Shown one piece after another: positions 3,001 to 59,887 of a stretch of 64,000 nt of DNA. The notes under the pieces were generated by a model that worked only from the letters and a program-made list of their open reading frames with translations, had not been told where the DNA came from and did not search any database. The first letter of the stretch is position 1, and every line of letters starts with the position of its first letter. Source of the stretch: an uncultured bacterium (GTDB taxonomy: Bacteria > Omnitrophota > Omnitrophia > Omnitrophales > Aquincolibacteriaceae); contig CAYZYT010000013.1 in assembly GCA_964482725.1 (NCBI GenBank), positions 1,465 to 65,464 of the forward strand, given 5' to 3'. A program made the translations under genes and the position numbers.

Positions 3001-4915
3001 GGGCCTCCATATCGCCCCAGTTGACACCGGTCTGCGTCAACGTACTCAAGTCCGTCCAGTTAACACCCGCACGAGTTAAGACGTTGAGGTCCGCCCAATT
3101 GATCCCCTCTTTCGAGAGAATATCGAGATTTGCCCAGTTCACGTTGCCATCCGAAAGCGCCTGAATCCCGGACCAGTTCACACCGGCAGTCGAAAGGATA
3201 TCAAGATCCGCCCAATTCACTCCCGCTTTCGAAAGCACACTAAAATCGGACCAATTCACTCCCGCTTTCGAAAAGACTCCGATATCCAACCAATTGACTC
3301 CCGCTTGTGACATCACATTCAAACCGTCCCAGTTCACATTCGCGGAACTCATAACACGCATATCGGTCCAGTTCACATTGGCTTTTGTAAGCGCCGCCAA
3401 GTTATCCCAATTAATGGTCTCCGACCAATCGACATGAGCCCCGGTCATCTTCGCGAAATCATCCCAGTTCGCGCCGGCCTTGGACATACGTTGAATGTCT
3501 CCCCAGTTCACTCCCGCCTGGGACAGAACTTCGATATCGTTCCAGTTGATCCCAAGACTTGACATCCGTCCCACATCAAGCCAGTTCGTTCCGGCCACGG
3601 ACAAAGCCTCAATGCCGCTCCAATTCACCGCGGAAGCCGAAAGCGCTTCGATGCCGCTCCAGTTGACTTTCGCTTGACTCATTTTTGAAAGATCGGACCA
3701 ATTGACTCCGGAGACCGATAACAGGCCGAGATTTTCCCAATTGATCCCGGCCTTGGCCAAACGCCCGATATCTTTCCAGTTCACTCCCGCCAGCGTCAGC
3801 TGCTCGAGGTCAAGCCAGTTGATATTGGCCGTGCTAAACGACATGATCTCCGACCAACGGATGCCGGCCCTCGTCAGGGTCCGGACATCTTCCCAATTCA
3901 TACCTTTTGAGGACAACTCCGCGATATCATTCCAATTAACGCGAGCCTCCGACATCGCCTTCAAATCGTCCCAGTTCGCCTTGGCCACCGCGATCAAAAT
4001 ATCCCCGGTTTTTTTGTACAACGTCTCGGATTGGTTAGCTCCGACCGCGGTCTTGATCGCCTGGATATCCGACCAGTTCATGTCTTCCATTTTAGTTTTC
4101 ATCGAAGAAACATCCGTCTTGATCCCGGAAACATCCGAAGCCATCGAACCTGCCAGCGAGGGAGTAAGAACGTAGGTGCTCCTATAATTTGCACCCATAT
4201 AATTGATCTGGGTGGTAACGAGATACGAGGCATTCACATCGCCCGGGATCCAGGTTGACGAGAATACGCCACCACTGACAGCCGTGGCGGTTGTGAAGTT
4301 GAGACCCGAGTACGTACAGTCGCCTGGCACATAATCACCGTCGATCAGGATCTCGCGGGTTTGGTCATTCTCGTACCAGCTACTGACTGTAAAAGTGCCA
4401 TCGCTATAAGTCAGAACAGTCATCACATAGGTATGGTGATCCGCGACATTAAAAGCATCGGACGTGGCGGAGGTAAGGCCGGCGGCGCTCGCCTGCAGCG
4501 TATACATTTCTCCAGACTTATTCATGAACAAACCCTTCCCCGCGAAATCAGCCACGCCCCCGACGGCGTCCATGGTAATGGTACCGCCAAGCGTGGCTCC
4601 GGAGGGGTTGTTCGAAAGAGCCAGCGTAACGGTATTCGTCGCCGTCGCAAATAACTCATCATTCCCGTCCCGAATCTCCACAATGGGGTCTCTCGAGAAC
4701 ACCTGTCCGACAATTTGGTCTCCGGGATGAGCCGTAAAGACGAGGTGGGTGGGCACCTGCACGCTACCTTCCGCGGAAGAAGAACCCTCTCCGTCCCCGC
4801 CGGTGTAAATCGCGGCATTGCCTGTGTTCATTCCCAAAAAGAAAATAGCGGTCACCAGCCAGACCATGCTCCGGTAACCGGGATTTTTTTTATGGAAAAA
4901 GGAGAGGAAGCTCAT
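1..4915 (-). CDS. Giant secreted 13-aa tandem-repeat protein (partial; C-terminus beyond window start). Signal peptide + Ig-like domain + >100 'NWxD[LI]xx[LM]SxAGV' repeats
   Basis: Manual minus-strand translation from ATG at 4915: MSFLSFFHKKNPGYRSMVWLVTAIFFLGMNTGNAAIYTGGDGEGSSSAEGSVQVPTHLVFTAHPGDQIVGQVF... then ...MNWSDIQAIKTAV.., VNWNDIAELSSKGMNWEDVRTLTRAGIRWSEIMSFSTANINWLDLEQLTLAGVNWKDIGRLAKAGINWENLGLLSVSGVNWSDLSKMSQAKVNWSGIEALSASAVNWSGIEALSVAGTNWLDVGRMSSLGINWNDIEVLSQAGVNW... Open continuously down to ~3290 by hand; units sampled at 1-400 give the same frame (SDLGVLSKAGVNW, IGMDVLSKAGVNW, SDLNVMSKAGMNW). Strictly conservative substitutions (L/M, K/R, N/D/Q). Absent from ORF track because no in-window stop. 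Confidence 0.75.
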   Translation of the reverse strand, partial: MSFLSFFHKKNPGYRSMVWLVTAIFFLGMNTGNAAIYTGGDGEGSSSAEGSVQVPTHLVFTAHPGDQIVGQVFSRDPIVEIRDGNDELFATATNTVTLALSNNPSGATLGGTITMDAVGGVADFAGKGLFMNKSGEMYTLQASAAGLTSATSDAFNVADHHTYVMTVLTYSDGTFTVSSWYENDQTREILIDGDYVPGDCTYSGLNFTTATAVSGGVFSSTWIPGDVNASYLVTTQINYMGANYRSTYVLTPSLAGSMASDVSGIKTDVSSMKTKMEDMNWSDIQAIKTAVGANQSETLYKKTGDILIAVAKANWDDLKAMSEARVNWNDIAELSSKGMNWEDVRTLTRAGIRWSEIMSFSTANINWLDLEQLTLAGVNWKDIGRLAKAGINWENLGLLSVSGVNWSDLSKMSQAKVNWSGIEALSASAVNWSGIEALSVAGTNWLDVGRMSSLGINWNDIEVLSQAGVNWGDIQRMSKAGANWDDFAKMTGAHVDWSETINWDNLAALTKANVNWTDMRVMSSANVNWDGLNVMSQAGVNWLDIGVFSKAGVNWSDFSVLSKAGVNWADLDILSTAGVNWSGIQALSDGNVNWANLDILSKEGINWADLNVLTRAGVNWTDLSTLTQTGVNWGDMEALSKAGVNWSDLGVLSKTGVNWTDLQVISRTGVNWDGIDALSQAGVNWIGIDVLSKSGVNWGGIDALSEAGVNWMDMSVFSNAGINWSDVNALSTRGINWSDLNVMSKAGMNWLDIGALTKAGVNWSGVDAISKAGVNWTDLQVISVAGVNWSDLNVLSKTGVNWNGIDVLSKAGVNWSDFNVLSKAGVNWSGMQALSAAGVNWADFDILSKSGVNWTDLNVLSKAGVNWDGIDSFSKAGVNWVDIGVLSKAGMNWSGIDALSRAGVNWIDLSVMSKVAINWSGIDALSRAGVNWMDLNVLSGIGVNWSGIDSLSKAGINWTEMGVLSKEGVNWTGIDVLSKAGINWADLNIFSRAEVNWSGIQAFSVGGVNWLDMGVLSKAGVNWSGIDALSRAGVNWADLNVFSQAGVNWSGIQAMSIAGVNWTDIGIFSKAGVNWSDLNVLSRAGVNWLDMGALSQAGINWTDLNILTQAHLNWEDLNVLTRSGVNWADLNVFSKAGVNWSGMQALSAGGVNWADLNVMSKAGVNWLDMGVLTKAGVNWNGIDALSKAGVNWSDLNVMSEMGVNWSGIDVLSRAGVNWSDLNVLSRAGVNWSDLDVMSKASLNWSDMSALSKSGVNWSDLNVLSKAGVNWSDLNVLTRAGLNWADLQTMSRAGVNWNGIQELSSGGVNWSDLNVMSKAGVNWLDMGILSKAGVNWTDLNVLSRGGVNWSDLNVMSKAGVNWLDMGVLSKAGVNWIGIDVLSKAGVNWGDLNVLSETGINWSDLNVMSRAGVNWSDMGVLSKAGMNWSGIDVLSKAGVNWSGMDVLSRAGVNWSGIQALSEGGVNWDDIQVLSRAGVNWQDIKALSKAAINWGDLNVLTQAGLNWSDLNAMLSSGVNWLDVGVLSRTGVNWSGMQALSVGGVNWGDLNVLSKTGVNWTDLQVMSRSGVNWTGMDVLSKAGVNWADLNVLTQAGVNWSDLNVMSKAGMNWIGMDVLSKAGVNWSDLGVLSKAGVNWEGMD

Positions 4916-6501
4916 GACGCGGTCCTCGCGCAACGCCCGCCATAATCGGCTCCACGCGTCGTGTCGGCCGTGGCGGCTCGATCACGATCTGAAACTGCAA
5001 GCCGCACGACATCTGCGGAAGCAACAGACCAACCGCCGCCTTTCAAGCCACTCCCCACGGCATCGCTCAATCCCGGCCATGATTCATTGGCATCGCCTTG
5101 CGCAGTCAATCCGCCATCTCCGTGAGCTCCGTTAAACCCGCGGCCTTCTGAATTTCCGACAGTCACGACACGCTCCCACACATTTCCGGAAAGGTCCAGA
5201 TTGCCGTAATAACCCGCTCCCGAAGCAACGCGAGTCGTTGTGGAAGTCGTCGCAAAAATACCCACCCGAAGAGGACCGGTCCCCGACTCCGTAACGCCGG
5301 TAAAATTGACATTGCCATATAAAGCATTCGCACCGCTCGTGGTGATCGTTTCCCCGCCGGTCTCGGGCCCCGAAATCCCACTGCCCGCCGGTTTCATAAT
5401 GCTGTCATTGCCCCAGGCATATTCTCCCGCCACGGGAGCATTCCCCGCTCCGCGGCAGGCTTTTTCAAATTCAAGTTCCGTCATAGGTCTCAAACCAGCC
5501 CAGTCCGCATAGGCCGCAAGATCCATCCATGAAAGAAAACCGCAAGCTCGGGGCGAGCGCGTCGTCCGTGCGTCTCCAGACTCCCAAAAGATCGTATTTC
5601 GGCTCACCACGCCATCGCTGTTTTTCCCCGAAGCGGCCGTGATATCGCGCGTGGCCTTCTGAGTCGCGGTCAGTGTATTGAAAAAACCGACCCATTGCCC
5701 TTCCGAGATTTTATATTTCATCAGATAAAAAGGTGCATAACCTTTAGGGAACGCTGCCGCGAGCGGTCCCGCGCCGCCGATGCCACTCGGACCACCGTTC
5801 GACCAAAGGTTCCCCTCGACGGCGTTGATGGTAAGAGCTGCTTCCGAAGTAACCCGGTAAGGGATCGTAGCCCCATCGATCCACGACCCGTCCGTCAAAC
5901 TGTTCGATTCTGTTCCTCCGGAACCAACATAAAACGCCCCTTCAGGGATATAGACCATTTCGATTGCAAAAACATTGACCCGCGTCGACGTCGCACGAGC
6001 ATTCGCGTCACTCACACCATTCGCGGCATAATCCCAAACCAGTTTGATTCCGCTGGTGGAAACAGTCCCCGTCCCCGCACTCGAACGCCGGATAAAACAA
6101 CCCTTAAGATCCCCGGGGACCACCAGATCGATAGTCGTCCCGGTGCCGCGCTCAAAACCGGCGGGATTGGCGCCAGCAGTTTTGAGGATCGCGTGATGCC
6201 AAGAGGATCCGGAATCCGTGGAATATTTGACGAAAATCCAAACCGCATCATAATTGGCGGCATCGTACCAAGAGTTGTCCCACGAAATATTAAGACCGAT
6301 TTTTGCGGTATGGGTTCCGCTATCCTGATCCGCTACGACCACTCTGGAAACGCGTACATTATTGGCGAGAGCCGAAAGAGGAAAGGAGAGAACAAGGAGC
6401 GCTAAGGCCAAGGATATCTTCCAATTTCTTCCCCTGTCTAACTCCTTGCAGCAGAAGAGACTACCACCACTTACTTGTCTTAAAAAAGCTCTAAGCATCA
6501 A
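4912..6501 (-). CDS. FGE-sulfatase / DUF323 (SUMF1-like, C-type-lectin fold) domain protein with N-terminal signal/TM segment
   Basis: 529 aa ORF. Motifs VYIPEGAFYVGSGG, LMKYKISEGQWVGFF, GFLSWMDLAAYADWAGLRPMTELEFEKACRGAG, YAWGN, GNVWERV, GGGWSV match the formylglycine-generating-enzyme family. Stop TGA overlaps the start ATG of the downstream giant gene (ATGA). Confidence 0.8.
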   Translation of the reverse strand: MMLRAFLRQVSGGSLFCCKELDRGRNWKISLALALLVLSFPLSALANNVRVSRVVVADQDSGTHTAKIGLNISWDNSWYDAANYDAVWIFVKYSTDSGSSWHHAILKTAGANPAGFERGTGTTIDLVVPGDLKGCFIRRSSAGTGTVSTSGIKLVWDYAANGVSDANARATSTRVNVFAIEMVYIPEGAFYVGSGGTESNSLTDGSWIDGATIPYRVTSEAALTINAVEGNLWSNGGPSGIGGAGPLAAAFPKGYAPFYLMKYKISEGQWVGFFNTLTATQKATRDITAASGKNSDGVVSRNTIFWESGDARTTRSPRACGFLSWMDLAAYADWAGLRPMTELEFEKACRGAGNAPVAGEYAWGNDSIMKPAGSGISGPETGGETITTSGANALYGNVNFTGVTESGTGPLRVGIFATTSTTTRVASGAGYYGNLDLSGNVWERVVTVGNSEGRGFNGAHGDGGLTAQGDANESWPGLSDAVGSGLKGGGWSVASADVVRLAVSDRDRAATADTTRGADYGGRCARTAS

Positions 6502-18687: not shown

Positions 18688-19086
18688 TCAGGATTTCGTT
18701 TTTTGAGAAAGGGTTACAAGCCATTTCTGGAACGGAGGATACTCGCGCAGAGGCTTCAAGTCCGGATCTTTCTCGAGATGTCTCAGATCCGTAAACCCCA
18801 GGCGAACCGCTTGCCGAAGCGCCGTCAGGGCCTTCGCCGTATAGCCGGAAAGAACATAGCTGCAGGCAAGGTTGTAATGAACGACCGGATCGTCTTGACA
18901 GAGAAAAGCCAGCCGCTTGTCGATTTCAAGGCCCTTTTCAAAAAGACCCCGGCGCGTATAGGCCTCCGCGAGCGGAGCCAGGGCATCGATGTAGTTAGGA
19001 CGGTGTTTGAGGACGCCTTCGAGGAATGAGATCTCAAAATCCAGATCGTTCGATTTCATAGTCTCAATGCCTATCAATTTTAACAA
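18688..19086 (-). CDS. TPR-repeat protein
   Basis: 132 aa with TPR-like helices (PLAEAYTRRGLFEKGLEIDKR, HYNLACSYVLSGYTAKALTALRQAV). Confidence 0.6.
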   Translation of the reverse strand: MLKLIGIETMKSNDLDFEISFLEGVLKHRPNYIDALAPLAEAYTRRGLFEKGLEIDKRLAFLCQDDPVVHYNLACSYVLSGYTAKALTALRQAVRLGFTDLRHLEKDPDLKPLREYPPFQKWLVTLSQKTKS

Positions 19087-19089
19087 AGT

Positions 19090-19210
19090 TGAAATTGGGG
19101 CTGTCCCAATTCAGATCAATCGAAGCAAATTTGAGATCGGGGCTGCCCTGATTGCCATACCAGAAAAAGAAAACACAAATCAGGGCTGTCCCCACTACCC
19201 CTGATGTAAA
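19090..19210. promoter_or_regulatory. Three tandem small stem-loops sharing a GGGGCTGYCCC core (~42 bp spacing)
   Basis: aattggggctgtcccaatt; atcggggctgccctgat; atcagggctgtcccc...ccctgat. Located between the PEBP-gene stop and the TPR-gene start. Confidence 0.4.
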
Positions 19211-19301
19211 AAAATCAAAAGTTGGGATGGCTGCATGATACCTTATCCAGCACCGTTTTCCATTTGTTTTTAGGGGTTACCGTCTCAAGGAACGAGGCGC
19301 C

Positions 19302-19847
19302 TCAGGAACGCTTGTAGGTTCCTCTCAACATTCCTTCTGCTAAAACACGCCCTTCCATCGTCTTGAGCAGGTCCCGCTTGGTGGCACCGGGCTTTAAATG
19401 AAGCATCGTATCCAGCGCGTAAACCATAAAAGCATAGCGATGCGTGCCGCTTGGGGGACACGGCCCCCCATACCCGATCGCTCCGAAATCATTCTTCCCT
19501 TGAAGCCCTCCCATGGAGAGTTTTTCATCCTTAGGAATTCCGGCAGGAAGCTGCGTCAAAGACGGCGGCAGATCATAAACCAGCCAATGCACCCAATCTC
19601 CGGCCGGAGCATCGGGATCCTCGGCAACGATCACAAGACTTTGCGTTTGGGTCGGAACGCCGGACCATGCGATCGGCGGTGACCTATCGGCTCCGTCGCA
19701 GGTAAAATCTGACGGAATGCTGCCCCGATCCTCGAACGCGGAACTGCGGACTTCGAGCTGTTCCATAAAAAACTCCTCCGTTTGCCCCAAAACAGGAGAG
19801 ATAAATAGCAGACCTAAAACAATAACCGTCATCCTGAGCATCGCGAA
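19302..19847 (-). CDS. YbhB/YbcL-family PEBP (Raf-kinase-inhibitor-like) periplasmic protein
   Basis: Motifs DGADRSPPIAWSGVP, LVIVAEDPDAP, HRYAFMVYALD. The ORF track starts at 19898; the likely start MLRMTVIV lies inside the MITE terminal repeat. Confidence 0.75.
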   Translation of the reverse strand, partial: FAMLRMTVIVLGLLFISPVLGQTEEFFMEQLEVRSSAFEDRGSIPSDFTCDGADRSPPIAWSGVPTQTQSLVIVAEDPDAPAGDWVHWLVYDLPPSLTQLPAGIPKDEKLSMGGLQGKNDFGAIGYGGPCPPSGTHRYAFMVYALDTMLHLKPGATKRDLLKTMEGRVLAEGMLRGTYKRS

Positions 19848-19918
19848 GGATCTCACATTAAAATTCTTCGCCCTGCTGTCCCGCCTCTGGCGGGACAAGC
19901 ATCAGGCTCAGCATGACG
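19826..19918. mobile_element. MITE/REP-like nested palindromic element, copy A
   Basis: ccGTCATCCTGAGCatcGCGAAGGATCTCacattaaaATTCTTCGCCctg[ctgtcccgcctctggcgggacaag]catcaggCTCAGcATGACG. Termini and inner arms are inverted repeats shared with copies B-E. Confidence 0.6.
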
Positions 19919-19993
19919 TGTTTTTTAGAGGCGCTTAAGATTCCTTTCATTCCTTCCTCTATTCGCCGTTCCACGTTACCCGTTCCCCGAATT

Positions 19994-20560
19994 TTACGAC
20001 ATACTCCTGACAGAGATCCGGTCGAGGTAACTCAGATCGTCGGTATTGAGACGGATCGTTTCACCCTCGCTGACAAATTGCGGCACGAGAACGATGAGCC
20101 CGTTCTCGAGTTCAGCCTCCTTGAAATTCGCATCGGATCCCAGCCCCTTCGGCGTGCTCACCACCTTGAGCTCGACGATCTTTGGGAACGCAATACTCAG
20201 GACTTTCCCTTCCCCAAAAAGCACCTCGATCACTTCATTCTCCCGCAGGAACACCTCGTGTTTGCCGACCGCCTTGGCCGACAGGGGAAACTGATCGTAG
20301 CTCTCCATATTCATGAACATGAAATGGTCGCCTTCACGGTAAAGATATTGCATCTTCACAACATGGACATCCACTTCCTCCGCGTTCGCGTCCGCGGACA
20401 TTTTTTTCTCGATCACATTTCCTTCATCAAGGCTCCGGAGCTTCAACATCGCGCTCTTGCCGAATTTCCCTGTCCCGCGAATCTCCTGCGTCAAGACCTT
20501 GCAAAGCTTCCCGTCCACGCGAATCACATTCCCTACCCGTATTTCTGATGCAATGACCAT
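19994..20560 (-). CDS. efp: Elongation factor P
   Basis: 188 aa; MVIASEIRVGNVIRVDGKLCKVLTQEIRGTGKFGKSAMLKLRSL..., typical EF-P length with KOW and OB domains. Confidence 0.9.
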   Translation of the reverse strand: MVIASEIRVGNVIRVDGKLCKVLTQEIRGTGKFGKSAMLKLRSLDEGNVIEKKMSADANAEEVDVHVVKMQYLYREGDHFMFMNMESYDQFPLSAKAVGKHEVFLRENEVIEVLFGEGKVLSIAFPKIVELKVVSTPKGLGSDANFKEAELENGLIVLVPQFVSEGETIRLNTDDLSYLDRISVRSMS

Positions 20561-20596
20561 TTTTATTCCTCCGATTCATTAATCCTTGGCAAGAAA

Positions 20597-21289
20597 TTAC
20601 TGCAAAGGAGTCCAATTCACACTAGAGTTAGAAAAGCCCGTTAAACTACTCGAAATAGCCACTATCCAATAATTTCCTTTCTTGACGGAAAAAGAAACGG
20701 TTCCGTAATAAACTTTTATAGCAGGAGAGACGAGTATACTCATCTGAACGCTATCAACAGCAATGGGGGTGCAATCGCTTAAAGGGCTCGAGCTGCTGCA
20801 GGTGATCCCTTGAATAATGCCGTCCTTTGCAGTGGTGTTTATCTGCACCCATGCAGCCACAAACCCATCGCTCGCCGCGGGGCCATAAGTTGTGTTAGCG
20901 CTCTTCAAACTCGAAGACCCCAGAGACACGCCACCCCCGAGATTCTTCCAGGTGGTACCATCGGTCGTATACTTAAAATTTTCTGAGCCTGATGTATTAT
21001 TATAATAAATACTACCTGCTGCACCGGAGGGGTTCGATACCCCTCCCACAAATGTAAGAACCCCTGTTTGCGGCGTAGTCCCAGTATAGCCTAAGGTAAG
21101 TATCGTGCTTTGGAGCGCGGAATATTCCCCCATCGGCGCGGGATAGTAGGTCGTCAGCTCGATCTTTCCGGCGTAAGCCGAAGGCGCCATCGCTAGAACC
21201 CAAACGATCAGGCTGAATAAAACAGTGGTTTTTAACATAGCAGATCCTTTTTGTTGTTTTATGGCTTTTTTTGAATCCCCTCCGAGCAC
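20597..21289 (-). CDS. Small secreted protein, paralog A of the conserved-N-terminus family
   Basis: Signal peptide MLKTTVLFSLIVWVLAMAPSAYA, then GKIELTTYYPAPMGEY; Ser/Thr/Gly-rich C-terminal domain. N-terminal ~45 codons near-identical at DNA level to 21447..22133 and 24504..25178. Confidence 0.7.
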   Translation of the reverse strand: MLGGDSKKAIKQQKGSAMLKTTVLFSLIVWVLAMAPSAYAGKIELTTYYPAPMGEYSALQSTILTLGYTGTTPQTGVLTFVGGVSNPSGAAGSIYYNNTSGSENFKYTTDGTTWKNLGGGVSLGSSSLKSANTTYGPAASDGFVAAWVQINTTAKDGIIQGITCSSSSPLSDCTPIAVDSVQMSILVSPAIKVYYGTVSFSVKKGNYWIVAISSSLTGFSNSSVNWTPLQ

Positions 21290-21343
21290 TTAGAATCCTC
21301 AGGGACAGGTCTGCTTCGATTTTCCAGACCTGTCCCTGCAGTC
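21241..21343 (-). promoter_or_regulatory. Conserved ~105-bp 5' leader (copy 1) with perfect 10-bp inverted repeat GGACAGGTCT/AGACCTGTCC
   Basis: ...tgttgttttatggcttttttt...cttagaatcc...ggacaggtctgcttcgattttccagacctgtccctgcagtcaa; near-identical copy at 22134..22240. Confidence 0.6.
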
Positions 21344-21415
21344 AAGACCTTGCAAAGCTTCCCATCCTCCCGGATCACATTCCCCACCCAAATATCCGAT
21401 GCACCGATCGTTTAT
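21340..21415 (-). pseudogene. Degenerate duplicate of the efp 5' end (first ~25 codons plus a few upstream bases)
   Basis: 21342-21412 (agtcaagaccttgcaaagcttcccatcctcccggatcacattccccacccaaatatccgatgcaccgatcg) is ~80% identical to efp 20489-20560 (cgtcaagaccttgcaaagcttcccgtccacgcgaatcacattccctacccgtatttctgatgcaatgaccat). Confidence 0.6.
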
Positions 21416-21446
21416 GCCTACTCAGCTTAAGAACACGATCCGATGA

Positions 21447-22133
21447 CTAATACTTAATGCAGTAAACCACCGCCCGATTTTTGGGCCGAGTTTCTGTACC
21501 GCCCGTCCCCTCCGTAGTACCCCCTTGTCTTCCATAATGGACCGTAGAACCACTCGAGAAATAAAAGACAGGACTGCTTGTCCCCCATATAGCGCCGTTT
21601 GCAGTATGCGCATGTGATTTGAAATCATCGGTTTGGATTGACCCGAGGGTCCGTGTCGCGACGTCAGGGTCCACCCCGCCCAATCCGCGCAGGAAATAAC
21701 CGCGATAATCCGGAAGATTAAATGTGGAACTTCCGTCGCCCGTTCCATGGGTCGTCCCAATAGCGGCAAAAAGAGCCGCGTAGTTCGATCTTGATACCGC
21801 CGCGCCGTTACAAACCAGCCATCCAGACGGAGCCGCGGACATGGCAAAAGCCGAAACCATACCGGGAGGATTCCCGCCTGTGGTTCCCCAAGAGCTTCCA
21901 TCGCAAACCTGAACCTGATTGGTCGAGGAATCGTAGTACATCATCCCTTCTGCCGCGGCATTACACACGGGCTGTGACTTCGGAACAAGCTTGAGGGTGT
22001 TACTCTGCAACGTATCATACTCTCCCATGGGTGCGGGATAGTAAGTCGTCAGCTCCACTTTCCCGGCATACACGGACGGCGTCATCGCCAGAACCCAAAC
22101 GATCAAGCTGAATAAAACCGTGTTTTTAAACAT
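21447..22133 (-). CDS. Secreted phage tail-collar (MdpB-like) domain protein, paralog B
   Basis: Signal peptide + GKVELTTYYPAPMGEY; C-terminal LVCNGAAVSRSNYAALFAAIGTTHGTGDGSSTFNLPDYRGYFLRG...ETRPKNRAVVYCIKY matches the tail-collar / microcystin-dependent-protein fold. Confidence 0.75.
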   Translation of the reverse strand: MFKNTVLFSLIVWVLAMTPSVYAGKVELTTYYPAPMGEYDTLQSNTLKLVPKSQPVCNAAAEGMMYYDSSTNQVQVCDGSSWGTTGGNPPGMVSAFAMSAAPSGWLVCNGAAVSRSNYAALFAAIGTTHGTGDGSSTFNLPDYRGYFLRGLGGVDPDVATRTLGSIQTDDFKSHAHTANGAIWGTSSPVFYFSSGSTVHYGRQGGTTEGTGGTETRPKNRAVVYCIKY

Positions 22134-22240
22134 TGGAGATCCTTTTTGTTGTTTTATGGCTTTTTTCGAATCAACTTCGGATACTTAGAATCCGGAAGGA
22201 CAGGTCTACTTCGCTTTTCCAGACCTGTCCCTGCAGTCAA
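22134..22240 (-). promoter_or_regulatory. Conserved 5' leader (copy 2) with GGACAGGTCT...AGACCTGTCC palindrome
   Basis: ggagatcctttttgttgttttatggcttttttcgaatc...cttagaatcc...ggacaggtctacttcgcttttccagacctgtccctgcagtcaa; the CYTH-gene stop codon lies in the terminal tcaa. Confidence 0.6.
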
Positions 22241-22743
22241 CGCTTCCATCCAAACATCATCTGAAGATAAGATCTTTCTTCTCGATCTGTACGCGTGAGG
22301 CCCAGTCTCTTTTCAATCTTTTTGATGGATTGAGACTGCCCTTCGATCTCAAGAAAACGGCCGAATCCGGGCAATCGGTCTAATGTGATATGACTCTTGC
22401 CGAGGCGGTAAAGCTCTCTTTCTTTTTTGTAACACATGACGACTTTGAACCCCGCAAGGCACAGAATCTTTTTCATCAGAATATAATCCACAGGCGTTTC
22501 GATCTCCAGGCGCTTCGTAAATTCGGCTTTCATCCGCGACCCTTTAAGCGTCAGCGTAGCATCCTTCCCGTACTTCCGGAGCCGCATAGCAAGGCATTTC
22601 CCTCTGAGGTCTCCGTCCCGGTCAAAGAACTCGTTCGACTCGAATCCTCCGGCAACCTTCTTAGCGCCTATTTTTTGAAGCAGACCCCGAACCCGTTTCG
22701 GATCCTTCAGACGATATTTCTGTTCGATCTCAAAAAATCTCAT
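22237..22743 (-). CDS. CYTH-domain protein (CyaB-like class IV adenylate cyclase / triphosphate tunnel metalloenzyme)
   Basis: 168 aa; MRFFEIEQKYRL... N-terminal EIE.K motif, basic residues and the LEIE motif typical of CYTH. Confidence 0.65.
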   Translation of the reverse strand: MRFFEIEQKYRLKDPKRVRGLLQKIGAKKVAGGFESNEFFDRDGDLRGKCLAMRLRKYGKDATLTLKGSRMKAEFTKRLEIETPVDYILMKKILCLAGFKVVMCYKKERELYRLGKSHITLDRLPGFGRFLEIEGQSQSIKKIEKRLGLTRTDREERSYLQMMFGWKR

Positions 22744-22845
22744 AGACTCTAAACGCCTCGCTATAACAGCTTATCCCGTAGGGCAGGTTTTCCGCCTGCA
22801 AAGCAGGACGGATTCGTCAAACACCAAGCCGTCCGCTGAAAAACT

Positions 22846-22925
22846 CCGTCATCCTGAAACGATGCGCTGCATCGCGAAGGATCTCCGCTCGAGATTCTTC
22901 GCCCTCTCCGGGGCTCAGAATGACG
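22846..22925. mobile_element. MITE/REP-like nested palindromic element, copy B
   Basis: ccGTCATCCTGAaacgatgcgctgcatcGCGAAGGATCTCcgctcGAGATTCTTCGCCctctccggGGCTCAGAATGACG. Confidence 0.6.
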
Positions 22926-22949
22926 CGGGCCGGATTTTTCAGCAACCAG

Positions 22950-23504
22950 CTACGCCTGGATCAACATTTTATCGCGGACATTGTCGGCCAGGTCTTTTCC
23001 CACAAGTCGGGTAGCGATCACAAGCGCAAATTCCAGAGCCGTACCGGGGCCCTGGCTTGTGATAATATTCCCGTCCACCACCACTCGTTCCTTGGAATGA
23101 ATGGTCGTACTCGAAAAATCCGCTTCACAACCCGGATAGCAGGTCGCCTTCTTACCCTCGAGGATACCCAACGGCGCTAACACAACCGCCGGAGCGGCGC
23201 AGATCGCGGCCACGAGCTTTCCTTCGGCATTCATTCTTTTGATAAATTTCGAAACTTCTTCGGACTTGGCGAGATTCGTAGCTCCCGGAAGCCCTCCGGG
23301 AAGGATCACGACGTCGGGAAGGTCCTGGATATCTTTCAGAAGTGCGTCCGCGTGAATTCCGATCTTCCTTGAACTCGAAACAAGTCTGGAGTCTACGCCG
23401 GCCAAGGTCACCCGGACCCCTGCACGCCTCAGGACATCGATCGGCGCGATCGCTTCAAGTTCTTCAAACCCCTCTGCGAGAATCACAACCGCTGTTTTTG
23501 GCAT
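22950..23504 (-). CDS. DJ-1/PfpI family protein
   Basis: 184 aa; VAAICAAPAVVLAPLGILEGKKATCYPG (nucleophile-elbow Cys), VVILPGGLPG. Confidence 0.8.
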   Translation of the reverse strand: MPKTAVVILAEGFEELEAIAPIDVLRRAGVRVTLAGVDSRLVSSSRKIGIHADALLKDIQDLPDVVILPGGLPGATNLAKSEEVSKFIKRMNAEGKLVAAICAAPAVVLAPLGILEGKKATCYPGCEADFSSTTIHSKERVVVDGNIITSQGPGTALEFALVIATRLVGKDLADNVRDKMLIQA

Positions 23505-23515
23505 AGCCGCCCCTT

Positions 23516-23941
23516 TTACTGAGGTCCTGGATTTTGCGCATTCGGATCAACTTGTTCCACCACAAGCTTCTTCTGCCCGAAGATCCTGTCATTGGCAAAG
23601 ATCCGGAATTCATAATTCCCCGCGTGCATGAAACGCACCCCCCGGAGGTTAAACACCAGCTCATGTGCGTCGAGAGGACTCGGGACGCGCACTTCTTCCG
23701 GCATTTCGCTTTTGCCGATCATAGCATCACTTTGCAGGTCTACGAGTTCCAGCCGGAAGTGATAGCCCCCCTGCGCATCCGTCAGCTTGATATAGACGGA
23801 CATCGCAAAATGTGTGCAGGGAAACGTGGCCGCGCCGATATTCTCAAAAACCCCGATCAGACTTTTTTTGTTCGTGCCGCGCTCCGTGATCACGTAATCG
23901 CAGATGAGCATGGCGTTCGTTTTAGGTGTAGGAGATGTCAT
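23516..23941 (-). CDS. Hypothetical protein
   Basis: 141 aa ORF, no recognised motifs. Confidence 0.45.
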   Translation of the reverse strand: MTSPTPKTNAMLICDYVITERGTNKKSLIGVFENIGAATFPCTHFAMSVYIKLTDAQGGYHFRLELVDLQSDAMIGKSEMPEEVRVPSPLDAHELVFNLRGVRFMHAGNYEFRIFANDRIFGQKKLVVEQVDPNAQNPGPQ

Positions 23942-23974
23942 AAAACCCTTTCGTTAGGCCGCCCAACATAATGA

Positions 23975-24040
23975 CCGTCATCCTGAGCGAAGCGAAGGAT
24001 CTCGCTTCGGGATTCTTCGCCCTACGGGCTCAGAATGACG
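23975..24040. mobile_element. MITE/REP-like nested palindromic element, copy C (compact form)
   Basis: ccGTCATCCTGAGCgaaGCGAAGGATCTCgcttcgGGATTCTTCGCCctacgGGCTCAGAATGACG. Confidence 0.65.
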
Positions 24041-24076
24041 CATTTTGTTAATGGCTCTTAATAGTTTTTTAAAAAT

Positions 24077-24364
24077 CTATCCAAATTTATAATGTTTCTT
24101 AACAGCTCGCTTGATATTCCAAACGCATTTCAGCCCCTGGGGGAATGTCACAAGATCCCCTTTGCCAAACGAGACCTCGCCCTCTGGAGTCTTCACAATC
24201 ACCTCGCCCTCCAGAAAATAGCAAATCTCTTGCTCATCGTAATACCAGTCAAAGCTCGAGACCTCTTTCGTCCAGATGGGCCATGAAAACACTCCCAGGG
24301 CATTCAGCTTTTCGCTCGTGGGTTTTTCCACCAAAATCTTCAAGGTCGCTTTTCCTGCCGCCAC
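24077..24364 (-). CDS. Cupin-domain protein (small, single barrel)
   Basis: 95 aa; ...WPIWTKEVSSFDWYYDEQEICYFLEGEVIVKTPEGEVSFGKGDLVTFPQG..., cupin-like strands. Confidence 0.55.
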   Translation of the reverse strand: MAAGKATLKILVEKPTSEKLNALGVFSWPIWTKEVSSFDWYYDEQEICYFLEGEVIVKTPEGEVSFGKGDLVTFPQGLKCVWNIKRAVKKHYKFG

Positions 24365-24503
24365 GATACGCCTCTCGCGTTTTTAAGAGGAACGCCGTTA
24401 AGCCCCGGACTTAAAAAGATTTTCAAAGTGGGTTCATATTTCCGGCTTTTAAGTGCCTTTGGCCTGTCTGTCCCATAGGAGTATTTCTACTTTGGTTGGA
24501 CAC

Positions 24504-25178
24504 TTATTCCCATAAAAGAAGGCGCCAATAGCCTGTGTTATATGTATTCTCAGCATAAGTAGTTTCATTGTAATATCTAAACAGTGGCGTGCCGGTTTTA
24601 ATAGTAAATATAACCGTAGAACTGGTTAATCTGACGGTTACGGGATTGGATAATCCATATGTGTTTATTGATCTGGAATAAATAGAAGCGGGTGAAGAAG
24701 AAGTAGCAAAAAACAATTCCGTTCTCCTGGGGAGGACCCCGAGCTGATGCGAAAAAGTGGTTAAATGGTCGTCAGTTGTATTATCCGCAACCCAGCCCGA
24801 ATCATAATCTGGCTCTGCCCCTCCCAAATTCTTCCAGCTAGAACCGTCGCTGTAAAGCATCCCGCCAACACCCGCTCCATTGCCGTCTGAACTGTATCTT
24901 ATTGAACCCGCTGTGCCGCCACTTTGAGCGCCGGCGTTGCCGGTGACCGGAGCCAGCGTCAGAGTATTATCCACAGCTAGAATCGCATGATTCGTGGTCG
25001 ATCCCACATTAACACCCCCCGACGTAGAAGCAAAAGCTGCGTTCTCCGTAGTGCTTAATGTTTTATATTCTCCGTACGGCGCAGGATAGTAGGTCGTCAG
25101 CTCCACTTTCCCGGCATAAGCAGATGGCGTCATTGCCAGGATCAAAAAAATCATGGTTGTTTTTTGGATCAGGCGCAT
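24504..25178 (-). CDS. Small secreted protein, paralog C of the conserved-N-terminus family
   Basis: Signal peptide ...MIFLILAMTPSAYA + GKVELTTYYPAPYGEY; shares a G-[SM]-[IM]-[YR]-Y...DGS[ST]W[KG]NLGG-type motif with paralogs A/B; unrelated C-terminus. DNA 25085-25140 is ~90% identical to 22030-22085. Confidence 0.7.
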   Translation of the reverse strand: MRLIQKTTMIFLILAMTPSAYAGKVELTTYYPAPYGEYKTLSTTENAAFASTSGGVNVGSTTNHAILAVDNTLTLAPVTGNAGAQSGGTAGSIRYSSDGNGAGVGGMLYSDGSSWKNLGGAEPDYDSGWVADNTTDDHLTTFSHQLGVLPRRTELFFATSSSPASIYSRSINTYGLSNPVTVRLTSSTVIFTIKTGTPLFRYYNETTYAENTYNTGYWRLLLWE

Positions 25179-25211
25179 GCAACTCCCCCTTTTTTACTTC
25201 ATTTGCAGCAT

Positions 25212-25883
25212 TTATTTCCTGAACTTTTCAAGCCACCCGCAGTATTCACACTCCGGCGCAGCCTTGGGCGCAGGACCTGTGAGGATCGCGAGCGCCTGGT
25301 GGAACAATTCCTTCGCGCGTTTAACGTCCGTTGCAATCCGAATCGGTTGGATCTCAAACCCCACCTTACCGTGCTCCCCGACCTCTTTGGGCGAGTAATA
25401 AAGAAGAAATCCGTAGCCGGCGGTTTTGAGTCCGTTCCCCTCGAGCATCAGCGCGTAACAATCCAGCTGGGTTTGATAATACTTGGTCGCGTCCTCTTCA
25501 TTCGTGGGCGAGCCCTTGGTCTTGTAGTCGAACGGAACATAAGCACCCTCCTTCACAAGCAGATCATCGAGCATGCCTGAGAGCACTTCCCCGTTCTCAT
25601 GGTATTGGAGCCCGGTACGCCAGGCACGCCATCTCTCGAGCTGGGCCTGATCGTCATAAAGATGAATGCCTTTGAAAGCGTCAATGCGAAGTTCCGGAGG
25701 AAGTATTCCCTTGGCGCGAAAGGTATCGAAATAGGTCTTGATCACGCGGTCCATGCCTCCCGGAAGCGAGGGGAAAATACCGCGAGGCCGCTTGATTCCC
25801 TTCACCTTCTCCAGCCAGAAACACCGCGGACAATTCTTGAAAAGGCTCAACGCAGATGGAGATAACGTGACTTTCTTTGTCAT
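25212..25883 (-). CDS. PD-(D/E)XK nuclease family protein (RecB-like exonuclease domain with Cys cluster)
   Basis: 223 aa; N-terminal SPSALSLFKNCPRCFWL, DYK catalytic triad region, C-terminal CEYCGW, pattern of the PDDEXK_1 / Cas4-like fold. Confidence 0.6.
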   Translation of the reverse strand: MTKKVTLSPSALSLFKNCPRCFWLEKVKGIKRPRGIFPSLPGGMDRVIKTYFDTFRAKGILPPELRIDAFKGIHLYDDQAQLERWRAWRTGLQYHENGEVLSGMLDDLLVKEGAYVPFDYKTKGSPTNEEDATKYYQTQLDCYALMLEGNGLKTAGYGFLLYYSPKEVGEHGKVGFEIQPIRIATDVKRAKELFHQALAILTGPAPKAAPECEYCGWLEKFRK

Positions 25884-25951
25884 GGGCTCCTCAAAAATGG
25901 AATGGCGTGATTATATATCTGCAGTCTGCCCAATAGCCAGCGATTTACAAT

Positions 25952-26027
25952 CGGATGGATGGGATCGGAGGGTGGATGGAGAAAAACCAAGCCTGTCGCC
26001 ATCCGTCATCCGCCATCCTCCATCCGT
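25952..26027. repeat. GGATGG/CCATCC-rich long hairpin element, copy 1 (distal arm overlaps 3' end of the PflX-like gene)
   Basis: ggatggatgggatcggagggtggatggag-aaaaaccaagcctgt-cgccatccgtcatccgccatcctccatccg. Confidence 0.5.
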
Positions 26028-44517: not shown

Positions 44518-45318
44518 TTAGATCAATTCTCTCAGATCGCGGATCACCGTCACGAAATCCTGATGGTCTTTCGCCAAAGTCGCATGCCGAGCCGAACGGT
44601 CGAGCCAGATGGCCTTGATCCCGGCCAGATGCGCGCCGCGGACATCGTCTTCCAGGCTATCCCCGATATGAACAGCCTCGCCCGCCGAGACATTCGCTTT
44701 TTTTAAAGCTTCCTCAAAGATCTTCGGGTTGGGTTTGGCCGCGCCGAAAACCGCTGAGATAATTTTGAAATCGAAATACCGATCGATCCCAAGGCCCTCG
44801 CATAATTTCAAAAGACGGCTGTCCCAATTCGAGACCATCCCAATAATAAATTTTTTCTCCTTAAACGCCTGAAGCACGTCCTTAACTTCCGGATAAAGTT
44901 TCCAAACACCGGGTTCGGCGAAAAGAGTGTGGAGCTCGTCAAAAAAAGGATCGAACGCCCGAAGCCCTTTAAAATCCTGAAAGACGGCCGTCACGATCTT
45001 GCGCCAAAACTCCTTCTCAACCTTCTCATCCGATTGGCTCCTAAGATCGCCTATCCCGTCATGCTCGCTCCAGACCCGACGGAACGCGGCCTCGACTTCT
45101 TTGACACCCACTTGGCAGCCATGCTTCGCAGCCACTTCGCTGTAATAATATCCTACCGACGGGAACGGACGGAAAAGGGTCCCCCCCGCATCCAACAAGA
45201 TCGCCCGGGTCCCTGCGGGGATCTTCACGTTCGCCTTAATATCAGGGAAAGGTCTGCTTCCCTTTGGAAGACCCGTCCCTTGGGTGTCAAAATTGGAGGA
45301 ACTATTGCTGTGAGCCAC
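44518..45318 (-). CDS. HAD-superfamily hydrolase (start probably GTG at 45318; ORF track over-extends to 45780)
   Basis: AILLDAGGTLF (DxG), MVSNWD, HIGDSLEDDVRGA. GGAGGAG RBS 6 nt upstream of GTG at 45318; the upstream part of the track ORF overlaps the TPR gene in another frame. Confidence 0.65.
   Translation of the reverse strand: MAHSNSSSNFDTQGTGLPKGSRPFPDIKANVKIPAGTRAILLDAGGTLFRPFPSVGYYYSEVAAKHGCQVGVKEVEAAFRRVWSEHDGIGDLRSQSDEKVEKEFWRKIVTAVFQDFKGLRAFDPFFDELHTLFAEPGVWKLYPEVKDVLQAFKEKKFIIGMVSNWDSRLLKLCEGLGIDRYFDFKIISAVFGAAKPNPKIFEEALKKANVSAGEAVHIGDSLEDDVRGAHLAGIKAIWLDRSARHATLAKDHQDFVTVIRDLRELI

Positions 45319-58022: not shown

Positions 58023-59887
<1,865 letters not shown>

Follow-up and report, generated by a model that had tools for sequence, protein, structure and literature searches.

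Repetitive extragenic palindromic (REP) elements, in work attributed to Higgins and colleagues in 1988 and to Shyamala and colleagues in 1990, are said to serve as intercistronic mRNA hairpins and as join-points of duplications. Their palindromic cores are short, mostly extragenic, and dispersed (PMC3337134), and the REP and REPIN-RAYT systems (REP doublets with REP-associated tyrosine transposases) of Proteobacteria offer one standard of comparison for palindromes elsewhere (PMC3337134, PMC3116915). Here, we set this and three other kinds of system, namely, microhomology-mediated tandem duplication, integron cassette arrays, and mosaic phage tail-fiber genes, beside a locus in a 64-kb stretch of an uncultured Omnitrophota bacterium (contig CAYZYT010000013.1; the whole stretch is called the window, and coordinates refer to it unless a contig is named). 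In this locus, two genes for small secreted proteins, each behind a leader of ~105 nt, stand between a CYTH-domain gene and efp, and a fragment of efp lies between them. This feature is probably an internal join within a tandem array of genes for small, secreted, tail-fiber-like proteins, set in an otherwise conserved operon, with a REP-like palindrome as its passenger.

Like microhomology-mediated tandem duplications and amplifications, the locus is built of head-to-tail units in which downstream sequence is fused to upstream sequence at a short homology, and it displays copy-number polymorphism (two units in the window and in contigs L002, L006, and L007 versus four in the sister-strain contigs L001 and L012) along with concertedly evolving modules. 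It departs from them in that its units carry unrelated gene bodies, like stacked alleles or exchanged cassettes. The likeness to REP and REPIN-RAYT systems lies in a palindrome of ~35 to 41 nt with a conserved, oriented center, found at dispersed extragenic sites near gene ends and in some local clusters. As in mosaic phage tail-fiber genes, homology drops sharply behind a conserved 5′ module, and one of the products (cassette B) has a T4 gp12-type collar. An earlier note on this DNA had read the duplicated leader and the partial efp copy as the footprint of a cassette insertion, a plausible reading that gives way here to the simpler one of a tandem-duplication join. The locus is informative, yet it represents largely ordinary genome evolution, and features of these kinds are already known.

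All genes of the CYTH-efp neighborhood lie on the minus strand, where they read, from 5′ to 3′, DJ-1, CYTH, leader 2, cassette B, spacer, efp-like fragment, leader 1, cassette D, spacer, efp, and PBP. The individual parts are as follows:

23504-22950, minus strand: DJ-1 gene (sequence, Pfam)
22237..22743, minus strand: CYTH-domain gene (Pfam CYTH), whose stop region supplies the left-hand microhomology, TTGACTGCAGG
22134..22240, minus strand: leader 2, in the original position directly 3′ of the CYTH stop (TGA within TTGAC)
22194..22234, minus strand: REP-like palindromic element, copy 2 (covariance model R1, 54 bits)
21447..22133, minus strand: cassette B, 228 aa, with the shared N-terminal module and a phage tail-collar (T4 gp12-like) C-terminal domain
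21413..21446, minus strand: 3′ spacer of cassette B, 34 nt, with an orthologue behind cassette B of L001 and no relation to the spacer that follows cassette D
21342..21425, minus strand: dead efp 5′ fragment, i.e., a ribosome-binding-site relic and codons 1-24, with ATG changed to ACG (alignments, tblastn)
21239..21343, minus strand: leader 1, reading in the sense direction TTGAC, REP-like hairpin, GGAUUC-containing stretch, Shine-Dalgarno sequence AAGGA
21299..21339, minus strand: REP-like palindromic element, copy 1 (covariance model R1, 61 bits), with a 14-bp stem
20597..21238, minus strand: cassette D, 213 aa, with a signal peptide, a GK-IELTTYYPAPMGEY module, and a beta-rich C-terminal domain without Pfam match
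20561..20596, minus strand: spacer between cassette D and efp, 36 nt, holding the efp ribosome-binding site GGAGGA
19994..20560, minus strand: intact efp, 188 aa (Pfam EFP_N/EFP/Elong-fact-P_C), donor of the duplicated 5′ fragment

A repeat finder returned a direct repeat of 224 nt (21122-21345 and 22017-22240; 85% identity) that comprises the ~105-nt leader and the first ~39 codons of both downstream genes, the repeated codons specifying a signal peptide and the motif GK(V/I)ELTTYYPAPMGEY. The leaders, previously described as near-identical, are indeed repeated, but their identity is ~86% (90% in the hairpin part and 84% in the remaining leader), and the repetition also extends into coding sequence. 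That the TCA at 22237-22239 in copy 2 is the CYTH stop codon was confirmed from the sequence. Next to leader 1, the stretch 21341-21413 matches the start of efp (20490-20562) with 82% identity over 73 nt. The E-value in pairwise blastn is 1e-16, and the degenerate copy of the efp 5′ end reported in the earlier note is a genuine duplication scar. In the window copy, the ATG is now ACG and the ribosome-binding site is degraded.

Every join with an efp fragment has the same composition, in which a relic of the efp ribosome-binding site and efp codons 1 to 24 are followed by TTGAC, the REP-like element, and the leader. In an alignment of all joins, the efp-derived part closes with ...AAGGTCTTGAC, and then (T)GCAGGGACAGGTCT... 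marks the leader start. The true CYTH end reads ...GGAAGCGTTGAC(T)GCAGGGACAGG (also written as ...GCGTTGAC before the REP-like element), and intact efp runs on as TTGACGCAGGAG or ...GGTCTTGACGCAGGAG. The joining of efp codon ~24 to the nucleotides after the CYTH stop thus points to a head-to-tail duplication of the segment from the CYTH stop to efp codon 24. At the join, a microhomology of 11 to 12 nt pairs TTGAC(T)GCAGG, at the CYTH stop, with TTGACGCAGG, which constitutes efp codons 23 to 26 and is the right-hand microhomology. The three efp fragments of the window and L001 have derived substitutions in common (TT[T/C]GGGTGGGG versus TACGGGTAGGG in efp), and these are absent from efp and its orthologues, which argues for a single original join that was copied with the unit. 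Across events, the breakpoints vary (efp codon 24, efp codon 54, and CYTH -26 nt).

The state before the cassettes was read from 20 Omnitrophota loci retrieved by an efp scan, with one genome per species; the efp protein of the window is a member of a cluster at 90% identity whose name derives from Candidatus Omnitrophota metagenome-assembled genomes. All 20 loci keep the order cupin, DUF6941, DJ-1, CYTH, efp, PBP, and CYTH is followed directly by efp, with no cassette gene between them, in 18 of these species. The distance from the CYTH stop to the efp ATG is 17 to 27 bp, with only the ribosome-binding site between, in 11 loci, and another 7 hold 100 to 190 bp of other, often hairpin-forming, sequence. 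A gene of the cassette family, recognized by its N-terminal ELTTYYPAP motif, occupies the spacer in only two loci, L018 (one cassette) and L022 (two cassettes). The cassettes were thus added to an ancestrally tight gene pair. The earlier proposal that the paralogs entered next to efp holds as an insertion relative to the ancestral state. In a rough four-protein neighbor-joining tree, the three cassette-bearing lineages are spread over three clades, and each has sister taxa without cassettes.

The two-cassette layout of the window was recovered in three Logan assemblies (L002, L006, and L007). Two sister-strain contigs from independent samples, L001 (ENA) and L012 (JGI), have flanks ~94% identical to those of the window and carry four cassettes, A-B-C-D. 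L001, L012, and the Logan contigs were found by exact-protein look-ups, and their efp protein is identical to that of the window. The sister-strain products have 204 aa (A), 228 aa (B, with the collar domain), 247 aa (C), and 213 aa (D), and the leader precedes each of the four cassettes in L001. The B-to-C and C-to-D joins of L001 contain the efp ribosome-binding-site relic and the first ~72 nt of efp, one of the two fragments retaining the ATG yet being frameshifted. At the A-to-B join, the last 26 nt of CYTH (ATGTTTGGATGGAAGCGTTGAC) take the place of the efp fragment; the 106-nt 3′ flank of cassette A that precedes this CYTH fragment (L001 3225-3330) has no match in the window or the loci examined. 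Mechanical open reading frames (ORFs) span such scars, running from the efp fragment through the hairpin in the window (21259-21387, minus strand; 42 aa) and over a comparable stretch of L001 (4179-4292; 37 aa). Since their frames differ between the two strains, they do not represent a conserved upstream ORF.

An independent second case is provided by L022, a 374-kb contig of a different species whose efp is 87% identical. Its order is CYTH, cassette, 75-codon ORF, cassette, efp, and in the 75-codon ORF (4955-5182), which is intact, efp codons 1 to 54 continue in frame into the last 21 codons of CYTH. The breakpoint falls within GTGATCGAAAAGA, a stretch translated as VIEKK in efp and as VIEKR in CYTH. 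The left module (CYTH 3′ end, spacer, and cassette 5′ end) shows 99% identity over 300 nt, and the efp fragment only 88% over 168 nt. L022 has no palindrome, and its CYTH-cassette spacer is only 30 nt long; L018, with a single cassette, has neither palindrome nor duplication. The independent join of L022 thus indicates that duplication at CYTH-efp is recurrent, that its breakpoints vary, and that the palindrome is not needed for it. The efp′-′CYTH fusion ORF, which gene callers will annotate as a protein, is likely a scar. For annotation purposes, this ORF and the efp fragments, one of which appears as a 37-aa ORF in one assembly, are to be treated as scars rather than genes.

DNA common to all cassettes extends from -107 to +117 relative to the ATG, or to approximately -190 where the efp fragment is included, with 84 to 91% identity; beyond codon ~39, neither the bodies nor the 3′ spacers can be aligned between cassettes at the DNA level. 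Orthologous cassettes of the two strains are 91 to 93% identical throughout. In the N-terminal coding segment, L001 cassettes C and D are 96.6% identical, versus 80% for the orthologous D cassettes of the window and L001. The signal-peptide codons are likewise strain specific; they encode LAM(A/T)PS in the window, and all four L001 cassettes have LL(T/I)AP. These N-terminal variants follow the strain and not the cassette, which argues for gene conversion among the units of the array in the following regions:

21100-21238 and 21995-22133 of the window: concertedly evolving 5′ coding regions
2610-2740, 3457-3590, 4353-4480, and 5323-5450 of L001: concertedly evolving 5′ coding regions

To judge by these alignments, each unit looks like an allele of a single-cassette locus with conserved left and right flanks.

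The array would have arisen from an operon of cupin, DUF6941, DJ-1, CYTH, efp, and PBP genes in which CYTH abutted efp. In the lineage of the window, a secreted tail-fiber-like gene would have come to lie between these two, behind a leader of ~105 nt whose first 40 nt are REP-like. Unequal or illegitimate recombination between TTGAC(T)GCAGG, at the boundary of the CYTH stop and the REP-like element, and TTGACGCAGG, at efp codons 23 to 26, may then have duplicated a unit comprising the leader, the cassette, the 3′ spacer, and the efp ribosome-binding site with 24 codons. Either two sister chromosomes or a chromosome and allelic DNA received from a related strain could have recombined, and the outcome would be a dead efp 5′ fragment joined directly to a second leader. 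Unequal crossing-over and gene conversion between the resulting ~330-bp modules would later have shifted the copy number and homogenized the 5′ modules within each strain. Bodies and 3′ spacers would have been exchanged or stacked as alleles, not diverged in place. This may have happened by either of two routes. Units could have been stacked through unequal or illegitimate exchange of diverged alleles, e.g., after DNA uptake, or the conserved 5′ module and the start of efp could later have provided homology arms for a swap of bodies. The hairpin would have been multiplied with the unit as a passenger, and it may have promoted the rearrangement.

Several observations weigh against this origin. 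Cassettes B and D have unrelated bodies and 3′ spacers, so that simple in-place duplication is insufficient and a further step of exchange or allele stacking has to be assumed. The 11- to 12-nt microhomology contains one indel and could be coincidental. The B-to-D join of the window is mosaic with respect to the L001 joins B-to-C and C-to-D, and in a test of whether it is their deletion product, the informative sites interleave and favor no direction between two and four cassettes. The presence of cassettes in the same CYTH-efp spacer in three clades hints at a site preference beyond plain duplication. Finally, the role of the hairpin is one that we purely infer. Most plausibly, it would be an intercistronic mRNA hairpin that stabilizes the 3′ end of the upstream message or attenuates read-through, as REP hairpins do in enterobacterial operons; this role is suggested by its location, only 5 nt beyond a stop codon and in an intercistronic spacer of an ancestrally single operon.

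Among the competing explanations, one would make the CYTH-efp spacer a dedicated hypervariable locus of host-dependent Omnitrophota, where a conserved 5′ handle, made up of the REP-like hairpin, the leader, and the N-terminal ELTTYYPAP module, and the highly conserved start of efp act as arms for capturing, stacking, and shuffling tail-fiber-like receptor-binding cassettes. We regard this as unlikely. If true, it would constitute an integrase-free cellular analogue of phage tail-fiber diversification and would explain the three-clade occupancy, the copy-number change between strains, and the concerted evolution of the handle. The proteins concerned combine a conserved N-terminus (signal peptide and ELTTYYPAPxGEY module) with a variable C-terminal domain. 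Cassette B matches Pfam Collar (3e-24), short tail fibers in the PDB, and PHROGs tail-fiber families; cassette C and the L022 cassettes have weak tail-fiber matches, and searches of NCBIfam, PDB sequences, and PHROGs returned nothing for cassettes D and A and for par3, a third family member of the window, none of which has an annotated domain. An AlphaFold2 model of cassette D, built on a four-sequence alignment, had a pLDDT of 52.6, which was too low, and was not used. Only 9 homologues of the full-length family were found among 5.8 billion clusters. The N-terminal module recurs in more than 80 short proteins (55 to 95 aa; P0027-P0109) with little besides the signal peptide and ELTTYYPAPxGEY. 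Many of these are ~71 aa long and end in AGEIWVEG, as an uncharacterized small secreted family; the few with a named source come from Omnitrophota or Elusimicrobiota, and most lack a name or taxon. The cassette products differ from phage tail fibers in being short Sec-secreted cellular proteins encoded in a housekeeping operon, and scans of viral contigs gave no match to the N-terminal module or the palindrome. Omnitrophota are thought to live attached to other cells (PMC10066038), and an attachment role of the cassette proteins in these possibly host-dependent bacteria is a speculative one. What the locus documents is a strain-variable array of secreted tail-fiber-like proteins within a housekeeping operon; should they mediate attachment, it would be a candidate specificity locus to follow in population metagenomes.

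The palindrome bears on the remaining explanations. The perfect 10-bp inverted repeat that the earlier note reported in both leaders is real; GGACAGGTCT-N13-AGACCTGTCC occurs at 21303-21335 and 22198-22230, with 0 chance matches expected. The arms of copy 1 are longer, at 14 nt, and its loop is purine-rich on the sense strand (GGAAAAUCGAAG). Copy 2 begins 5 nt 3′ of the CYTH stop, a position that matches that of a cassette-less relative, L061 (Ga0182027_10260791), in which the REP-like element (615-649) also lies 5 nt after the CYTH stop and efp follows without a cassette; efp of L061 is 86% identical to that of the window at the DNA level. The asymmetric loop of the L061 element is opposite in orientation to that of the window, as would result from a "flip/flop" of a perfect stem or from independent insertion. 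The palindrome is not a leader-bound feature, since a third copy, with two mismatches (45246-45278), lies in the window away from any paralog and further copies occur in metagenomes. The third copy is placed as follows:

45242..45282, minus strand: third REP-like copy, in the spacer between TPR and HAD-like genes, 23 nt after the TPR stop, with no cassette nearby

Searching beyond the locus, a metagenome scan with the pattern GGGACRGGTCT-N13-AGACCTKTYC yielded 19 contigs, one of which (L055) is L012 again. Four to seven of the contigs have atypical loops, several with higher GC, and are possibly chance matches or another family. Outside the array, ~20 distinct typical copies or contexts were counted at unrelated sites. 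They have the arms and an asymmetric loop (consensus nGGAAnGCGAAGC) in common, and most of them lie a few nucleotides (mostly 5 to 30 nt) from ORF ends, some between convergent ORFs. The palindrome is thus one copy of a dispersed REP-like element. The consensus of 25 aligned copies is TCAGGGACAGGTCTnGGAAnGCGAAGCAGACCTGTCCCTG, with 89% of the stem cells paired, and the element folds into a 13- to 14-bp stem. A covariance model built from these copies matches only three sites in the window and gave no convincing copies in 245 kb of relatives' loci, which indicates that the family is lineage-restricted. This REP-like family in Omnitrophota is previously undescribed, and a literature search found no account of Omnitrophota REP-like repeats or of the cassette protein family.

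These findings render it quite improbable that leader and stem-loop form a dedicated cis-regulatory element under selection, be it an RNA switch, a thermosensor, a CsrA-type GGA leader, or the operator of a dimeric repressor. The leader RNAs do fold stably (folding energies from -26 to -40 kcal/mol and z-scores as low as -5), variant copies retain G-U pairs on the sense strand (five pair-preserving changes versus one breaking), and three GGAUUC/GGAUCU motifs occur in the leader, the last of them overlapping the Shine-Dalgarno sequence. However, the identity of leaders between copies (84 to 93%) is no higher than that of the adjoining dead efp fragment (84 to 90%), and recent duplication with gene conversion thus accounts for their similarity. 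Furthermore, Rfam returned no match at E<=1 across 19000-26000; the leader is absent 5′ of par3 and of family members in the other genomes examined; and the hairpin belongs to a dispersed repeat that also occurs between convergent genes. Among the 25 copies, the arms keep their sequence and give no covariation signal, so that RNA and DNA roles cannot be separated by this test. Scans of both leaders gave neither a sigma-70-type promoter nor a U-tract terminator, and inspection by eye revealed no sigma-54 spacing match in them. The REP-like stem lacks the U-tract of an intrinsic (Rho-independent) terminator, being followed by CUGAGGAUUC. The RNA stem-loop or dimeric protein site suggested in the earlier note is not supported as a leader-specific feature, the inverted repeat being a dispersed element with ~20 unrelated sites, among them the CYTH-efp spacer of the cassette-less L061. 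The third family member lies outside the array:

24504..25178, minus strand: par3, 224 aa, with the N-terminal coding module in common with the cassettes but not the leader

The N-terminal two-thirds of cassette A and par3 are 74% identical at the DNA level.

Site-specific insertion of cassettes next to efp, by an integron-like or otherwise integrase-mediated process in which the palindrome is the recombination site and the efp fragment a displaced gene end, is very improbable. What speaks for it is the palindrome at the 5′ boundary of each cassette in the window and L001, the mutually unrelated cassette bodies, and the occupation of one intergenic site in three clades. Integron cassette arrays are likewise made of short units of strain-variable content that have a single gene and no promoter, share one orientation, and carry an inverted repeat at their boundary. 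However, no integrase, transposase, or IntI is encoded within ~5 kb (18 neighboring window proteins scanned); the neighbors are DJ-1, DUF6941, cupin, a PD-(D/E)XK nuclease, a radical SAM protein, PBP, and others. The 13 nt that separate the two arms do not resemble a tyrosine-recombinase core, and the locus has neither attI nor an attC core, the boundaries GTTGACG and CTTGACG failing the R at position 6 of GTTRRRY. Whereas attC stands at the 3′ end of integron cassettes, the inverted repeat here is 5′ of each gene and recurs at ~20 unrelated cassette-free sites, among them the CYTH-efp spacer of L061. Cassettes of L018 and L022 occur without it. The topology is that of tandem joins, their breakpoints differ by event, and they hold fragments of both flanking host genes, as predicted by duplication and not by att-site exchange. 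Site-specific integration, as proposed earlier, is thus not upheld.

An assembly artifact, in which strain variants of a single-cassette locus were collapsed head to tail, is hardly credible: the source is metagenome-assembled and modules with 85 to 90% identity are prone to misjoining, but the two-cassette join recurs in three independent Logan assemblies and the four-cassette version in ENA and JGI assemblies from other samples, the efp fragments are degenerate (frameshift, lost ATG) and not allelic copies, and an analogous structure lies within the 374-kb contig L022.

Beside the REP and REPIN-RAYT systems, the element differs in several respects. It belongs to the phylum Omnitrophota and not to Proteobacteria, and its density, counted in this window, is low, at 3 copies per 64 kb, two of which stem from the duplication. 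No RAYT (HUH/Y1 transposase) is linked to it among the 18 window proteins scanned. The join in the window lies at TTGAC, immediately outside the element and not within it. The window copies are singlets, and the clusters on contigs L053 and L063 are direct arrays, not inverted doublets. These clusters (L053 376-609; L063 28-129 and 762-920) comprise four same-orientation copies each, with a period of ~66 nt, and a T-T mismatch occurs in the stem of many copies (GGGACTGGTCT). The clusters adjoin genes that, judged by eye, resemble those for ORF6N-type DNA-binding proteins, and no transposase-like ORF flanks them on these short contigs. The 3′ half of the loop is conserved as GCGAAGC in most aligned copies, e.g., at 22207-22213 (minus strand) in the window. 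This heptamer is reportedly an unusually stable DNA mini-hairpin, in work attributed to Hirao and colleagues in the 1990s; if relevant, it would point to a single-stranded-DNA stage of the REP-like element.

A second dispersed intergenic repeat was observed nearby. It is a nested hairpin of 70 to 95 nt, CGTCATCCTGAGC...GCGAAGGATCTC-loop-GAGATTCTTCGC...GCTCAGRATGACG, present in the window at 19826-19919, 22847-22926, and 23975-24041, with core matches near 59379 and 61806 (seven core matches versus 0.7 expected). These copies occupy the PBP|efp, CYTH|DJ-1, and DUF6941|cupin spacers, which measure only ~10 to 30 bp in related species, and the repeat looks MITE-like (miniature inverted-repeat transposable element) or REPIN-like. 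A related yet distinct hairpin, GGGACAGGC-N11-GCCTGGCCC, lies in the CYTH-efp spacer of L025 (2045-2181), which suggests repeated colonization of this spacer by hairpin repeats.

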